From positions 123,447 through 187,446 of the forward strand of contig CALEUW010000018.1 of assembly GCA_937920725.1 (NCBI GenBank): a stretch of 64,000 nucleotides of DNA. The letters run 5' to 3'. Under the pieces are notes generated by a model. The model saw only the letters and a program-made list of their open reading frames with translations. It was not told where the DNA came from and made no database searches. A program made the position numbers and the translations under genes. This document shows, piece after piece, positions 795 through 50,981 of this stretch (position 1 is the stretch's first letter; every line of letters begins with the position of its first letter). This DNA comes from an uncultured Ruminococcus sp. Its GTDB lineage: Bacteria; Bacillota; Clostridia; Oscillospirales; Ruminococcaceae.

Positions 795-1490
795 ATGGCT
801 GATTTACAAACAGCTTTAATTGAGAGGGTAAGCTCGGTACAAACAAAACCCGAAAGACAGGAAGTACATATAAATAGTTCAAAAGCATATCATTTTGTCA
901 AAAGAGCGTTTGATATAGCATTATCGTTGGTTTCTCTTGTTGTGTTAAGTCCTGTTTTTTTAATAGTATCGGCTGTTATATTTTTGTCTGACTTTCACTC
1001 TCCGATTTTTAAGCAGCAGCGTCTTACAAAGGATTCAAAGTTGTTTAACATGTATAAATTTCGTTCTATGTGCGTTGATGCAGAAGACAGGCTTGCAGAG
1101 TTACAGGAGTTTAATGAGGCAGATGAAGACGGAAAAGCATTTAAGATGACTGATGATCCTAGAATTACTAGAATAGGTAAGTTTTTAAGAAAGACAAGTA
1201 TAGATGAGCTTCCTCAGCTTGTGAATATTTTAAAGGGAAATATGAGCTTCGTAGGGCCTCGTCCTCCGCTTCCGAGGGAAGTTGAAGAATACGACGATTA
1301 TGAACTTCACAGGCTTGATGTAAAATCCGGTCTTACCTGCTATTGGCAATGCTCCGGCAGAAGTAATCTTTCCTTTGATGACTGGGTTGCGCTAGACATA
1401 AAGTACATAAACGAACAATCTTTAAAGACCGACATAATAATATTTTTCAAAACGTTTGGAGCTGTTTTAAAAGGTGACGGAGCGGTATAA
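795..1490 (+). CDS. initiating sugar phosphotransferase (bacterial sugar transferase family, WbaP/CpsE/EpsL-like)
   Basis: One TM helix, then ...KFRSM...DELPQLVNILKGNMSFVGPRPPLPREVEEYD..., typical of undecaprenyl-phosphate hexose-1-P transferases. ATG 795 follows GGGAGG; the ORF track begins at TTG 768. Confidence 0.85.
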   Translation: MADLQTALIERVSSVQTKPERQEVHINSSKAYHFVKRAFDIALSLVSLVVLSPVFLIVSAVIFLSDFHSPIFKQQRLTKDSKLFNMYKFRSMCVDAEDRLAELQEFNEADEDGKAFKMTDDPRITRIGKFLRKTSIDELPQLVNILKGNMSFVGPRPPLPREVEEYDDYELHRLDVKSGLTCYWQCSGRSNLSFDDWVALDIKYINEQSLKTDIIIFFKTFGAVLKGDGAV

Positions 1491-29189: not shown

Positions 29190-29520
29190 CCGATAAAAAT
29201 TTGCAATAAAAAAAGTCTATCATCCAAAAAGTCATTAAGACTTTATGGGACGATAGACGAAATCCTCGTGGTGCCACCCAATTTCCCGATGTAAAACATC
29301 GGCTCATAAAAAGTACGCAACAGTAAACTGTATCAATACTCCTTTCCTTTAACGCAGAAAACACACGGCTAAGGATAATTTCAAGAATGATTTCACCAAG
29401 CTCCTCACAAATCCATTCGCATAATCTCCGTATGTATCGGACTTCCACCGCCGCCGACTCTCTGTAACATCGTGAAAAAAGCTACTTACCTTTGTTCATA
29501 GGATTTATTTTATTGACTTA
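29190..29520 (-). promoter_or_regulatory. T-box riboswitch leader (tRNA-Trp-type) of the trp operon, with terminator
   Basis: The minus strand carries AAUUGGGUGGCACCACGAG, close to the T-box consensus AAUUAGGGUGGUACCGCG. A terminator hairpin AAAGUCUUAAUGACUUUUU precedes the trpE RBS. A TTGACA-17-TATAAT promoter lies at about 29528-29556 (minus). Confidence 0.75.
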
Positions 29521-38700: not shown

Positions 38701-40689
38701 ATGAGCAAAAAATTAAATAACGGTAATGCCAAGTCAGAAAGAGTGGCATCGAAAAGAGATCTCAAGCGTTATTCGTGGAGCGGGGTTAAGGACGAAGAGC
38801 TTACAGATCTTTTCACTATTGATGTGCCTGAAAAAAGTAAGTCTTATGAGATAAACAAGACTGCTGAGAAAAGCTCGGCTGAGCCGAAGAGAAAGCAGAC
38901 AAGCAGCGCCAAAAAGCAGACGAGATCGGATTCGCCAAAGCGCAGAACAAGTCGGCAGACAACTGCGGCAAAGACAAAAGCGCCCGCAAAATCTGCACAA
39001 AAGACTCAGAGCGCAAAGGCACAAAGACGCTCTACTCCGCTTAAAATAATACCGCTGGGCGGACTTAACGAGATCGGAAAAAACATGACGGTAATTGAAT
39101 GTGCAAACGATATTTTTATTATCGACTGCGGACTTGCGTTTCCGGATTCTGAAATGCTTGGAGTAGATCTTGTTCTGCCTGATTACACATATTTAGAGAA
39201 AAATGCTCAAAAGATCAGGGGAATTATTTTGACTCACGGTCATGAGGATCACATAGGCGGACTTCCTTATTTTTTAAACAAGATAAACGTGCCTGTATAC
39301 GGAACACGACTTACTATCGGACTTGTTGAAGGAAAGCTCAAAGAGGCGGGACTTTTAGGGAGAGTGACGTTATCTGTTGTAAAACCGGGAGATACAGTTA
39401 AGCTTGGCTGTATGGCTGTTGAGCTTATAAGAGTAAACCATTCTATACCTGACGCTGTAGGCATGGCTATTTTTACACCTGCCGGAATCTTAGTTCACAC
39501 AGGCGACTTTAAGGTTGATTTTACACCTATTGAAGGCGGAGCAATTGATCTCGCAAGATTTGCAGAACTGGGTAACAGGGGTGTTTTGGCTCTTATGTCT
39601 GATTCTACGAATTCGGAGCGTCCAGGTTTTACAATGAGTGAGAGAAAGGTCGGCGAAAGCTTTTCAAAGCTTTTTCAAAAGGCTGACGGGAAGAGAATTA
39701 TAATAGCAACATTTGCTTCTAATATTCACCGTGTTCAGCAAATAATTGACCGTGCTATAAAGGACGGACGAAAGGTTGCGGTTTCAGGAAGAAGCATGGT
39801 CAATGTTATGCAAAAGGGGCGAGAGCTTGGATATCTTAAATGTCCCGATAATATTTTAATTGATATTGATGAAATAAACAGGTATGCGCCTGAGAAGCTT
39901 GTTATAATTACAACGGGAAGCCAGGGCGAGCCTATGTCGGCGCTTACCAGAATGGCAAGAAACGATCACAGGCAGGTTTCCATTACTCCTATGGACTTTA
40001 TAATTATCTCTGCAACTCCTATTCCGGGAAATGAAAAGGGCGTTACAAATGTTGTAAACAGCCTTATGAAACTCGGCGCAGAGGTAATATATGAATCTAT
40101 GTACGATGTTCACGTTTCGGGACACGCTTGCCAGGAGGAGCAGAAGATGCTGCTGTCCTTGGTAAAGCCGAAGTATTTTATCCCGGTGCACGGCGAATAT
40201 AAGCATTTATCACGTCATGCACAAACGGCAAACGCTACGGGAATAGATTATAAAAACATTATTATAGCAGATCTCGGCAGCGTTATTGAAACTGACGGCG
40301 TTGATATGAGGATAACAGGCTCTGTACCGGCAGGAAAGGTTTTAGTGGACGGACTTGGAGTCGGAGATGTTGGAGTTATTGTTCTTCGGGACAGAAAGCA
40401 TTTGGCGGAGGACGGACTTATTATTGCTGTAGCTGCTATAGACAGCGAAAACCGAACAGTTCTTTCAGGTCCTGATATTGTATCTCGCGGATTTGTATAT
40501 GTAAGAGAAGCCGAGGAGCTTTTAGACGGAGCAAAGGAGCTTTTGTATGATTGTCTTAAAAGCTGTCTTGATCACTCTGTTTACGAGTGGAGTACAATGA
40601 AAAATAAAATGAAGGAATCGCTCTCAAATTACATTTACCAAAAGACTAAACGAAGCCCTATGATACTGCCGATAATAATGGAAGTCTAG
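38701..40689 (+). CDS. rnj: ribonuclease J (beta-CASP metallo-beta-lactamase RNase) with ~110-aa basic N-terminal extension
   Basis: ...LKIIPLGGLNEIGKNMTVIE...ILTHGHEDHIGGLPYFL..., preceded by a K/R/S/T/A-rich low-complexity N-terminus. RBS AGGAAAGG. Confidence 0.9.
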   Translation: MSKKLNNGNAKSERVASKRDLKRYSWSGVKDEELTDLFTIDVPEKSKSYEINKTAEKSSAEPKRKQTSSAKKQTRSDSPKRRTSRQTTAAKTKAPAKSAQKTQSAKAQRRSTPLKIIPLGGLNEIGKNMTVIECANDIFIIDCGLAFPDSEMLGVDLVLPDYTYLEKNAQKIRGIILTHGHEDHIGGLPYFLNKINVPVYGTRLTIGLVEGKLKEAGLLGRVTLSVVKPGDTVKLGCMAVELIRVNHSIPDAVGMAIFTPAGILVHTGDFKVDFTPIEGGAIDLARFAELGNRGVLALMSDSTNSERPGFTMSERKVGESFSKLFQKADGKRIIIATFASNIHRVQQIIDRAIKDGRKVAVSGRSMVNVMQKGRELGYLKCPDNILIDIDEINRYAPEKLVIITTGSQGEPMSALTRMARNDHRQVSITPMDFIIISATPIPGNEKGVTNVVNSLMKLGAEVIYESMYDVHVSGHACQEEQKMLLSLVKPKYFIPVHGEYKHLSRHAQTANATGIDYKNIIIADLGSVIETDGVDMRITGSVPAGKVLVDGLGVGDVGVIVLRDRKHLAEDGLIIAVAAIDSENRTVLSGPDIVSRGFVYVREAEELLDGAKELLYDCLKSCLDHSVYEWSTMKNKMKESLSNYIYQKTKRSPMILPIIMEV

Positions 40690-44972: not shown

Positions 44973-45029
44973 ATTTTTACGGCACCGTCTGAATAATTTC
45001 ACTCGGTGTTTCATTTTATAGATAAAGTT

Positions 45030-45216
45030 ATGATTTAAAATTTTGTCGCGTAGGCGGACATGTGCCGACGCAGCGACACTTTGAGAGAAAATCGGCGGTA
45101 CGAGCCGATTTTCGACGAAAAGGGGAGTACCCAGGGAAAAACGCAGAGCAAGACAGGTATCTGTCGCCGTGAGTGTGTTTGTCCCCTCAATGCGTGCTCG
45201 ACTTTGTCGACACGCT
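45030..45216 (+). repeat. ~190-bp structured intergenic repeat, copy A (direct orientation)
   Basis: Near-identical to the reverse complement of 50589-50780. It contains the perfect 10-bp-stem hairpin GAAAATCGGC-ggtacga-GCCGATTTTC and the GTCGAC-ttt-GTCGAC hairpin. Confidence 0.6.
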
Positions 45217-45254
45217 ATTCACTCGGTGCTTAATGTGTTTTAAAAGGAGTTTTT

Positions 45255-46577
45255 ATGCTTTTAGATAAAGTATATGAGTTTTTGTCGGGGAGAGATATCT
45301 TTTCAAAGGGCGACAGAGTTCTTGTGGCGTTGTCCGGGGGTGCAGACAGCACGGCTTTGCTTTCTGCTTTGTGTACACTCAGAGAAAGGCTTGGAATAAA
45401 AGTATCGGCGTTTCATATGAACCATAATCTTCGTGGAGAAGAGAGCATTCGTGATGAGGAGTTTTGCAAGAGCTTATGTAACAGACTTGGAGTTGACATT
45501 AAGGTTGTAAGCGAGGATGTTATGTCGTTTTGCAGGGAGAATTCTTTATCGACCGAAGAGGGAGCAAGAATTTTGCGATATAGAGCGCTTGAGAAAGAGC
45601 CGTATGATAAAATAGCAACGGCGCATACTTTAAATGATTCTTTTGAAACCTGTCTTTTTAATCTTGCAAGAGGAACAGCTTTAAAGGGTTTGACTGGAAT
45701 TTCTGAAAGAAGAGGAAAAATCGTCCGCCCGTTTATTGAGATTACAAGAGCCGAGATAGAGGAGTATCTTCACAGTATAAAACAGGACTACGTCACCGAT
45801 TCAACCAATCTGACAAATGATTATAAAAGAAACTTTATACGCCATGAAATCGTACCTAAAATGATTCAGGTAAACATTTCGGCGATTGAAAATTTTAAAA
45901 ATACTGCTCGTGCTTTAAATAATGACGAAAAATTTCTGGATAATTATTCAAGAGAAATTTTTTATAAGCATGTTAAAAGAGAAAACGGGTATAGCATAAA
46001 AGAGTTGTTAAAACAAAATCCTGCAGTTTTAAACAGAATAGCGGTAATGATTTTAAAGGAAAATAATATAGAAGTAAATACAAAGCGTATAAATGATTTA
46101 AAATACACTATGACCGACGGTAAACAGACAAATCTTTCAAAGGATGTATACTGCTTTATCGGTGACGACGGGGATTTAAAAATAGGCAAGGCAGAAAATG
46201 AAGAATGGATCTCGGTTGAAAAGCTCATAGAGCTTGATAAAAGCGAAACGTTTTTTGATAAGAGAGTTACCATAAAAACAGCTTACAACAATGATTTTAA
46301 TAGATTGTTCACAATGTTTGAGCTTGACTGTGATAAAATTAGGGGTAACATTGTTTTAAGAAACCGAAAAAGTGGTGATAAGGTGAAGCTTTCGGGACGT
46401 CAGCATACCACGCTTCTTAAAAAGGCATATAACAGCAGATTAAATCCGAGAGAAAGAATAAGCAATGTTATTTTGAGTGACAGCGAGGGAATAATATTCG
46501 TTGAGAATTTTTCAGTAGCAGAAAGAGTTAAAGCTGATGAGAACACAAAAAACAAGGCAGTTGTTATAATAGAATAA
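45255..46577 (+). CDS. tilS: tRNA(Ile)-lysidine synthetase
   Basis: PP-loop VLVALSGGADSTALL... Confidence 0.85.
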   Translation: MLLDKVYEFLSGRDIFSKGDRVLVALSGGADSTALLSALCTLRERLGIKVSAFHMNHNLRGEESIRDEEFCKSLCNRLGVDIKVVSEDVMSFCRENSLSTEEGARILRYRALEKEPYDKIATAHTLNDSFETCLFNLARGTALKGLTGISERRGKIVRPFIEITRAEIEEYLHSIKQDYVTDSTNLTNDYKRNFIRHEIVPKMIQVNISAIENFKNTARALNNDEKFLDNYSREIFYKHVKRENGYSIKELLKQNPAVLNRIAVMILKENNIEVNTKRINDLKYTMTDGKQTNLSKDVYCFIGDDGDLKIGKAENEEWISVEKLIELDKSETFFDKRVTIKTAYNNDFNRLFTMFELDCDKIRGNIVLRNRKSGDKVKLSGRQHTTLLKKAYNSRLNPRERISNVILSDSEGIIFVENFSVAERVKADENTKNKAVVIIE

Positions 46578-48779: not shown

Positions 48780-49157
48780 TTAAATCTGATGATTTATAAT
48801 CCATTTCACAATATTTTCGAAGGAACAATTACTTGACGAAACGCTTAGGATTATATTTGATAATTCTTCTTGTGTATACTCAAGCTCAATACCGTTGAGC
48901 GTGAGGAAAATGAGCATAACATGAGTTCCGATACGCTTATTCCCATCAACAAATGCATGATTTTTTATAAGGCCGAATCCGAGTCTTGCAGCTTTTTGTT
49001 GTATAGACGGAAAGGAATCGATACCATCAAAACTTTGAAACGGTGCATTTAATGCAGAGTCTAAAAGTCCCTCGTCATGAATGCCGTCTATGCCACCTGT
49101 TTCTTTTATCAATTCATGATGGAGAGAAATTATTTGTGCCTTCGTTAATTTTTTCAT
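48780..49157 (-). CDS. doc: Doc (Fic-domain) toxin of a type II toxin-antitoxin pair
   Basis: Fic/Doc motif HAFVDGNKRIGT. The start overlaps the upstream antitoxin stop (ATGA). Confidence 0.8.
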   Translation of the reverse strand: MKKLTKAQIISLHHELIKETGGIDGIHDEGLLDSALNAPFQSFDGIDSFPSIQQKAARLGFGLIKNHAFVDGNKRIGTHVMLIFLTLNGIELEYTQEELSNIILSVSSSNCSFENIVKWIINHQI

Positions 49158-49396
49158 TTTGCAAGCACCTCATAGGCTTGCTTGTTTTTTTCAATAAGAC
49201 GCTTGGAAATAGAAATAACATCTTCATCTGCGGCAACTTGCTCCTGTTCTGCTTGCTCAAACTCCACAATAAGATAACGTGGAACATTGTTTTTTAAAAT
49301 AACAGCAGCACCGTTCTCATCAACAAGTCTTGCAACTTTAGAAAAGTTTTGATTTGCTTCTGTGATAGACACAAGATTTTTTGTATTTACATTCAT
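49154..49396 (-). CDS. phd: Phd/YefM-family antitoxin
   Basis: Small acidic protein immediately upstream of doc and translationally coupled to it. GGAGG lies 8 nt before ATG 49396. Confidence 0.6.
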   Translation of the reverse strand: MNVNTKNLVSITEANQNFSKVARLVDENGAAVILKNNVPRYLIVEFEQAEQEQVAADEDVISISKRLIEKNKQAYEVLAK

Positions 49397-49632
49397 GTAA
49401 AACACCTCCATTTATATTATACACATCAAATAGGATAAATTCAACCTATATTATTAGATTTATAAAAAATTTTTATATGTATTGGAATGATACCATGGAA
49501 TAAGAAATAGAAGTAGCTTAAAAAATATGAGATAATAGTTTTGTTATACGTTAATTTTAGACGAACGGCTTTACAATTTGAAAAAATTGTGATAAAATAA
49601 CAATATTCTTAAAATTGAAAGGAGAGAGGATT

Positions 49633-50550: not shown

Positions 50551-50588
50551 AATGTTTGTTGTACAGCCGAATGTTTTTAGGCTGTTTG

Positions 50589-50780
50589 AGCGTGTCGGCA
50601 AAGCCGACAACGCTCCCTATGGGACAAACACACTTACTTCGACAGCTTCGCTCGTCTTGCTCTGCGTTTTTTCCCTAGGAAACCCCTTTTCGTCGAAAAT
50701 CGGCTCGCACCGCCGATTTTCTCTCAAGGTGTCGCTGCGTCGGCGCATGTCCGCCTACGCGACATTATTTTAAAAACATG
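50589..50780 (-). repeat. ~190-bp structured intergenic repeat, copy B (inverted orientation)
   Basis: The reverse complement matches 45030-45216. Same GAAAATCGGC/GCCGATTTTC hairpin, with GTCGGC-ttt-GCCGAC in place of GTCGAC-ttt-GTCGAC. Bracketed by near-duplicate hairpins CAGCCGaatgtttttaGGCTG (50565-50585) and CAGCTGaatgttttttCGGCTG (50803-50824). Confidence 0.6.
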
Positions 50781-50981
50781 CTTTTTCGACAAGCTGACAG
50801 CTGAATGTTTTTTCGGCTGTTTTTTTATGCTATAAAACACAAAAGGCAAAGATAACTTCTTGTATTTTGTAAAAAACCGCCTTTGACAAAATTCTTTAAA
50901 ACACAGGTTTATAATAAAAATAACTTTCCGCATATAAAGAGAAACAGACGGAAAAATTTTATAAAGACAGGTGTGTAAGGA

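Follow-up and report, generated by a model that had tools for sequence, protein, structure and literature searches.

What two closely similar repeats of some 190 bp, in opposite orientations on either side of tilS, ftsH, a phd/doc toxin-antitoxin pair and metA, represent in the genome of an uncultured Ruminococcus is a question to which several answers have been offered: recombination sites that allow the segment between them to invert, a repeated small-RNA gene, or a small mobile element. In the 64,000 nucleotides of DNA analysed here (that whole stretch being the window) and in related genomes, the evidence is best explained, with a probability that we put at roughly 85%, by two independent insertions of a MITE of about 210-230 bp which has ends of an IS1182 clade and a conserved folded interior.

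That the repeat pair is real, far beyond chance, is confirmed by the alignment of window positions 45000-45240 with 50589-50774 in reverse complement, which covers 187 nt and is 85.6% identical (E 4e-53 by blastn and 1e-37 by nhmmer), and the near-identical inverted repeats described in the original prediction at 45030-45216 and 50589-50780 are present with the hairpins and the patch listed for them. One hairpin differs between the copies by a compensatory pair, GTCGAC-ttt-GTCGAC in copy A versus GTCGGC-ttt-GCCGAC in copy B, and the divergent patch is AGTACCCA in A and TTTCCTAG in B. A and B are two copies of one element of ~210 bp, 86% identical overall, and the true boundaries are slightly wider than first reported because a degenerate left end of ~20 bp was missed. 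A search for a third copy across the 64-kb window found none besides A and B; a candidate at 39670-39685, which is inside a coding region, was rejected as a chance match. Pfam assignments give the gene order gdpP, rplI, dnaB, copy A, tilS, ftsH, doc (-), phd (-), metA, copy B, spoIIE and glgB, with the genes earlier named as lying between the copies where they were said to be. The window sequence is identical to that of JGI metagenome contig L001, and the nearest named relatives of its TilS are from Ruminococcus sp. MAGs. From left to right the features of the two sites are these:

44983..45008, + strand: terminator-like hairpin of dnaB, CACCG-TC-TGAA-taat-TTCA-CT-CGGTG, the target of insertion A
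44998-45008, + strand: left target-site duplication of insertion A, TTCACTCGGTG, which is the 3' half of the dnaB hairpin
45009..45217, + strand: copy A, 209 bp
45009-45027: degenerate left end of copy A, TTTCATTTTATAGATAAAG versus consensus CAGTCTGTCGAAAAAG
45045-45077: helix P1 of copy A
45087-45113: helix P2 of copy A, a perfect 10-bp hairpin, GAAAATCGGC...GCCGATTTTC, present in copy B too
45126-45133: variable patch of copy A, the 5' strand of the long-range helix P3, broken in this strain
45134-45190: P3 to P5 of copy A
45192-45215: right-end hairpin of copy A
45218..45228, + strand: right 11-bp target-site duplication of insertion A, TTCACTCGGTG, after which comes the original downstream sequence CTTAATGTGTTTTAAAAGGAG, with the start of tilS at 45255
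50563..50587, + strand: first copy of the metA terminator, A-CAGCCGAATGTTTTTAGGCTG-TTT, with CAGCCGAATGTTTTTAGGCTG at 50564-50584
50588..50797, - strand: copy B, ~210 bp
50616-50589: right-end hairpin of copy B, the last base of the element (right end ...CACGCTC) being at 50588
50762-50615: folded core of copy B
50764..50792, - strand: promoter-like site TTGTCG-17-AATAAT, 9/12 matches, just upstream of P1 of copy B
50796-50781: left end of copy B, CAGCTTGTCGAAAAAG
50798..50829, + strand: second copy of the metA terminator, CAGCTGAATGTTTTTTCGGCTG (50798-50819), with the original T-run

The duplicated terminator-like hairpins that had been noticed around each copy are thus borne out, with TTCACTCGGTG twice at site A and CAGCCGAATGTTTTTAGGCTG and CAGCTGAATGTTTTTTCGGCTG at site B, where the first metA terminator copy is slightly decayed (two substitutions and a 1-nt deletion) and the second is the sole strong intrinsic-terminator match in the region. 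The suggestion that they reflect target duplication on insertion into a terminator is upheld by empty sites with a single hairpin in sister species. Four sister species, with TilS 81, 80, 74 and 63% identical to that of the window, have the same gene order and neither copy. Copy A is missing from the orthologous dnaB-tilS spacer in all four, that spacer being 282 bp in the window versus 11-62 bp in the sister species, and copy B is missing from the metA-spoIIE spacer of L105 and L107 (431 bp in the window versus ~205 bp in sister species). Site A is empty in L102, L104 and L105, where the single dnaB hairpin is followed directly by CTTAATGTG; the empty-site sequence is CACCGTCTGAATAATTCACTCGGTG^CTTAATGTG, with the window element at the caret and the 11 bp of TTCACTCGGTG repeated. 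Site B is empty in L105, which has one metA terminator, CAGTCGAGATTTTTTTCGGCTG, and then TTTTTTT; in the window the metA hairpin is on both sides of the reverse-oriented element, with ~22-26 bp duplicated.

These sites bear on the idea that the pair serves as a switch for site-specific inversion, or as a composite unit mobilising tilS-ftsH-doc/phd-metA. Inverted copies 5.4 kb apart are what such a system would have, and inverted pairs are also present in L007, L035 and L042. Yet each copy has a separate and different target duplication, the two are only 86% identical, Pfam analysis of the window shows no recombinase among the neighbouring genes, the genes enclosed are core housekeeping ones, and the same gene order is found in sister species without either copy. 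The orientation of ftsH, metA, copy B and spoIIE is also the same in all ten strain contexts, and copy B is fixed, with few SNPs, in 7 strain contexts. An invertible or jointly mobile segment is scarcely credible in these circumstances. The link to the toxin-antitoxin pair is incidental: doc (48780-49157, -) and phd (49154-49411, -) are missing from all sister species examined and from L093, L095 and L097, which retain copy B and have ~260 bp of unrelated sequence in place of doc/phd between ftsH and metA, and the pair is a strain-level insertion or deletion that varies independently of both repeats. A and B are independent insertions, neither a local duplication nor an inversion switch, and the feature of the locus is explained as two ordinary independent transposon insertions, removing inversion control of tilS-ftsH or of the toxin-antitoxin pair from consideration.

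A scan with the junction motif of the element, one genome per species, yielded 42 loci of which ~30 are true copies by nhmmer, dispersed rather than locally duplicated, and all in MAGs of uncultured Clostridia, Eubacteriales, Ruminococcaceae or Oscillospiraceae. CAUHFD01 carries at least 11 loci and CAAEOA01 at least 5, and four MAGs from rabbit gut have 2-3 apiece. The element has a size of 209-235 bp; copies aligned with their flanks delimit it as ~215-235 bp, with a left end CAGTCTGTCGAAAAAG... and a right end ...GTCGACTTTGTCGACACGCTC. The reverse complement of the right end, GAGCGTGTCGACAAAG, matches the left end at 12-13 of 16 positions in elements like those of the window, an imperfect terminal inverted repeat. 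Although short ORFs run across the element, no reading frame survives the indels between copies, so that protein coding was rejected and the element is shown to be without coding capacity. Neither the 64-kb window nor the 8-kb loci carrying mini-elements yielded an IS1182-family transposase, no recurrent protein that could be a partner was found beside the copies (the top cluster consisted of spurious ORFs across the element), a search for tRNA or tmRNA gave none, and annotated plasmids and phages gave no blastn match to it.

A further scan, of metagenomes with the left-end motif, gave more copies and new interiors, as well as the longer element L076 considered below. At least four different folded interiors are now known with the same ends:

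type 1: that of the window
type 2: L035:7020-7202 (-), also L049, L053, L057, L059, L072 and L073; type-1 left end and right-end hairpin around a different and very stable interior (z = -10.5), multi-copy and duplicating terminator hairpins
type 3: L074, left end at 562, - strand; near-perfect inverted ends
type 4: L109, L113:8780-8950 (+) and L114 (- strand), on IMG/VR 'viral' contigs; near-perfect inverted ends in L113 and L114, and the exact P1 apical sequence AGGCGGACATGCGCCGCCG kept

More than 15 copies are bracketed by a direct duplication, of 9-55 bp, that is nearly always an entire terminator-like palindrome, and the target sequences are mutually unrelated. The duplication is 27 bp for L031 and L016, 28 bp for L022, L053 and L059, and for the type-4 element L114 it is a hairpin of 37 bp. 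At site A only half of the hairpin, 11 bp, is duplicated, and a few family copies are without a clear duplication. For the IS1182 family ISfinder gives direct repeats of 0-60 bp. The elements at L016:1140-1363 (-) and L059:~900-1080 (-) occupy the same orthologous terminator, AGGGCAGCCT..GGCTGCCCT, in syntenic flanks 83-84% identical over ~1 kb on each side, and the former is of type 1 and the latter of type 2, in opposite orientations; different cargo types in the same terminator imply independent hits on one target.

Some flanks have additional features. The loop of the duplicated hairpin is inverted between the two copies in L187 (TTT versus AAA), as is that of the downstream duplicate of L053 versus that of L064 (AAAAATTT versus AAATTTTT), which may be due either to template switching after insertion or to a trace of the insertion mechanism. 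At L045:4081-4409 a second left end, a partial one (CAGTTTGTCAAAAAAC), comes after the downstream duplicate, and L036 and L038 have a common 35-55-bp repeat that is separated from the left end by 17 extra bases; these atypical flanks suggest remnants of nested or tandem insertions.

The ends of the mini-element, CAGNCTGTCGAAAAAG, match the terminal inverted repeats of full-length insertion sequences of the IS1182 family. L076, an element of ~1.8 kb, is bounded by perfect terminal repeats of 16 bp (AGACTGTCGAAAAAGT) and encodes a transposase in two frameshifted ORFs (NF033551, E 1.6e-66 and 6.9e-20; Pfam DUF772 and DDE_Tnp_1_6). Homologues of its protein are in elements of ~1.79 kb with these ends, which are present at both termini for 13 of 14 loci, and (C)AG(A/C)CTGTCGAAAAAG is at the termini of L076, L078-L086, L088-L091, L142 and L187, with L087 having it at the left end only. 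L142 and L187, found by scanning viral contigs, have left ends that are identical to those of the mini-elements and abut hairpins. L142, of 1,593 bp, encodes an intact 497-aa protein that matches NF033551 over the full model length with 407.7 bits (cutoff 270; E 7.3e-122). L187, of 1,509 bp, has a 23-bp hairpin, AGGTTCGCGCnnnGCGCGAACCT, on both sides (AGGTTCGCGC-nnn-GCGCGAACCT), from which it follows that the footprint is no different for relatives that have these ends and a transposase. L142, L187 and L076 come from hosts other than the carriers of mini-elements. Judged by sequence, the ends of the mini-element are those of an IS1182-family clade.

In the relatives of L076 (L078-L091) there are conserved flanks beyond the 16-bp repeats, (C)TAACG on the left and CAACNNGNNNCTCAA on the right, at different sites, either because the true ends are further out or because insertion is into a conserved target. 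No obvious hairpin duplication was seen in this L076/P0020 clade (L078-L091), and it was left out of the inference of mechanism.

Small size, no transposase, terminal inverted repeats, target duplications, empty sites and dispersed copies are what characterize a MITE, and all are observed here; the non-autonomous mobile element that the original prediction had offered as one option is accordingly multi-copy in other genomes and has the terminal inverted repeats of the IS1182 family. The competing notion of an ordinary immobile small-RNA gene, locally duplicated, draws on the structured core with its covariation (see below) and on the presence of two copies within 6 kb. It is highly improbable in the face of terminal inverted repeats shared with insertion sequences, target duplications with empty sites, dozens of copies at unrelated loci in other genomes, and the finding of different cargo types in the same terminator in related genomes. 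A search of the literature, as far as it is searchable, for an IS1182-derived MITE or for the end sequence found no description of either, and the element family appears to be undescribed, yet it belongs to a known kind.

IS1272, a member of the IS1182 family, targets terminator stem-loops without sequence specificity and deletes them (PMC4923244, PMC5678879). Its cruciform model has 3' ends attacking the 5' feet of stem-loops with, as one outcome, whole-stem-loop duplication (PMC5678879), though the mechanism of the IS1182 family is still listed as unknown (PMC6199540). By analogy, an IS1182-family DDE transposase supplied in trans would bind the ends of the mini-element, and the target would be recognised by its shape, as an extruded cruciform or stem-loop, instead of by its sequence. 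Gap repair would then copy the whole palindrome to both sides, which is pathway b of the model (PMC5678879). The upstream gene would keep its hairpin, and an intact terminator would come after the element.

Comparison with known systems is instructive in this regard. With IS1272, which like TnSha1 is an IS1182-family element of staphylococci, the mini-element has in common that its targets are stem-loop or terminator palindromes of no fixed primary sequence, and the ends CAGNCTGTCGAAAAAG are identical or nearly so in L076, L142 and L187. IS1272 deletes the stem-loop and makes no duplication, whereas the mini-element and L187 duplicate it in the manner of pathway b; in contrast to IS1182-family insertion sequences, the mini-element has no transposase and its interior is an unrelated folded core. 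Such whole-stem-loop duplications had only been predicted for the IS1182 family by the IS1272 model, and here natural examples, with empty sites, are available for mini-elements and also occur in a full-length element. IS1630 of Mycoplasma fermentans, of the IS30 family, both targets and duplicates terminator inverted repeats, with a variable duplication length of 16-26 bp (PMC2853133, PMC3317919). The insertion footprint is the same as that of the mini-element, a resemblance in working and not one of membership, as IS1630 has an IS30 transposase and other ends and is autonomous.

Among bacterial MITEs, Correia, ERIC, RUP/BOX/SPRITE, bcr1 of the Bacillus cereus group and QMITE of Coxiella are small, intergenic, multi-copy and transposase-less, with predicted RNA folds and, in some cases, small-RNA products or motifs resembling terminators (PMC10969869, PMC3184786). 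Their duplications are short and fixed (TA or TTTAT, for example), whereas the mini-element duplicates the target palindrome itself. They are mostly one long hairpin formed via the terminal repeats, unlike the multi-helix mini-element with its strand-specific covariation, and a further difference is that the mini-element has several unrelated interiors on one set of ends.

The interior of the element is a conserved multi-helix fold, comprising P1-P5 and the right-end hairpin, with compensatory changes on one strand only. The two window copies have fold energies of -74 and -77 kcal/mol, with z about -5, and fold ~10 kcal/mol better than their complements. The consensus structure from 29 aligned cores has 44 pairs, 15 of them with double (compensatory) changes, and 96.7% of cells are paired versus 44-51% (~48%) when the partners are slid; none of 500 shuffles reached the observed values of covariation. 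On the strand that is + for copy A and - for copy B there are 126 G-U cells as against 10 A-C cells, and the 96.7% pairing there compares with 87.6% on the complement. G-T pairs, it should be kept in mind, are also tolerated in folded single-stranded DNA.

The patch where divergence is concentrated, which might seem hypervariable, is the 5' strand of the long-range helix P3 and covaries with its partner:

most copies: 5' UCGGGGGA, 3' UCCUUCGA
other copies: 5' UUGGGGGA, 3' UCCCCCAA
window copy B, intact: 5' CCUAGGGA, 3' UCCCAUAGG
copy A of strain L004: 5' UUGAGGGGA, 3' UCCCCUCAA

In copy A of the window strain P3 is broken (AGUACCCAGGGA) and, with its left end also degenerate, this copy looks partly decayed, copy B being intact. 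Strain L004 is of the same species, 99.35% identical overall, and its patch at L004:77-85 differs from that at window 45126-45133 (TGCATTGAG versus AGTACCCA) by 7-8 clustered differences in 9 nt, which looks like a single multi-base replacement as distinct from point mutations; the L004 patch gives a perfect 9-bp P3 helix and the window patch breaks the helix.

The strain-variable 9-nt patch had brought to mind the bridge RNA of IS110 and the omega RNA of IS200/IS605, which are structured non-coding RNAs of ~150-200 nt tied to an insertion sequence, as the core of the mini-element might have been. The idea was rejected: the patch is the 5' strand of P3 and covaries, and long duplications are present, whereas those systems make none and read the sequence of a target, and the targets of the mini-element share only shape. 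No IS110 recombinase, TnpB or IscB was found near the copies in the window or in the mini-element loci.

With moderate confidence, and from comparative sequence analysis, the interior can be taken to be a passenger in the form of a structured RNA. Its transcription would depend on weak left-end promoters or on read-through out of the upstream gene, and its 3' end would be at the right-end hairpin and the duplicated terminator. The passenger interpretation is favoured since P2-P5 are dispensable for transposase-bearing relatives, yet are kept paired and G-U-rich, even in copies with decayed ends. The duplicated host terminator is co-oriented with the element in most copies, the window copy B being an exception; that copy runs antisense to metA, and no U-run follows its last hairpin. 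Promoter-like boxes with at least 9 of 12 matches are in only 3 of 29 copies (L013, L025 and copy B, whose -35 box is the terminal repeat of the element), at differing positions, and they are inconsistent between subfamilies, with some placed so that transcription would start inside helix P1. A dedicated sigma-70-type promoter is therefore not claimed. The proposal of a repeated small-RNA gene has partial support, from the strand-specific covariation, any promoter and terminator of its own being putative.

It is possible, with odds clearly short of even, that the fold acts instead as DNA, with one strand folding, when single-stranded or as extruded hairpins, and so aiding transposase assembly on the ends or donor choice, in which case the covariation would reflect selection for mobility and not for RNA. 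The enzyme of the IS1182 family evidently does read DNA shape at the target (PMC5678879). In addition, P1 and the right-end hairpin are common to all four cargo types and have almost no G-U, the apical AGGCGGACATGYGCCGCCG is conserved at the level of sequence, in full-length relatives too there is a hairpin close to the left end and one joined to the right end, and no dedicated promoter is evident. Yet L142, L187 and L076 are entirely without P2-P5, so the transposase can do without P2-P5; the G-U-rich helices P2a, P3 and P4 are strongly one-stranded, as the 126 G-U versus 10 A-C cells attest; and the core is still paired in copy B and in the decayed-end copies L010, L013 and L020, which suggests selection after insertion.

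Another origin for the fold, as a relic of the untranslated leader of a parent insertion sequence where it might, for instance, have controlled transposase translation, is unlikely. The mini-elements would then have been derived by internal deletion, and it is in the parents that the covariation would have come about. MITEs commonly do derive from a parent by internal deletion, and different deletions of related parents would give cargo types that have both ends and P1 in common around different middles, as these do. But no part of P1-P5 is in any recovered full-length relative (none was found in L142, L187 and L076 by nhmmer and sequence inspection), where what is present is a small hairpin immediately internal to the left end and, on the right, a terminator hairpin joined to the end repeat; the leaders of these relatives are only ~100 nt, and scans of genomes, metagenomes and viral sequences revealed no core-bearing parent.

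The interior is also modular. A recognisable P1 hairpin is common to types 1, 3 and 4. Types 1 and 4 conserve the apical sequence of P1, AGGCGGACATGYGCCGCCG, and types 2 and 3 have a related one. For type 2, with only 5 distinct sequences, covariation is weak: one double-change pair, and 17 G-U versus 2 A-C. A speculative extension, on which we would not wager heavily, is that the IS1182-type ends are a generic 'chassis' that spreads unrelated functional structured RNAs via terminators. Were that so, the duplicated terminator would give each new RNA gene a 3' end while the host gene stayed terminated; the cargos, kept by selection after insertion, would be trans-acting or transcript-stabilising RNAs or cofactors of the shape-reading transposase; and gut Clostridia would have mobile small-RNA cassettes. 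The structured, covarying and modular interior is an unusual cargo for a MITE and is the part that is worth following up, as it provides a tractable lead on whether bacterial MITEs disseminate functional RNAs.

The presence of these elements in the terminators of core genes (dnaB and metA) of abundant gut Ruminococcaceae also has a practical side, as they can confuse the annotation of terminators, small RNAs and repeats in MAGs. When the whole window was searched with Rfam 15 at the gathering threshold, the element was without a match, and for both copies a permissive search gave only unrelated families with a best E above 0.2, with cargo type 2 faring likewise. The only Rfam family that reaches its gathering score in the window is RF00230, as a T-box leader at 29243-29508 (-) with 102 bits and E 2e-21.
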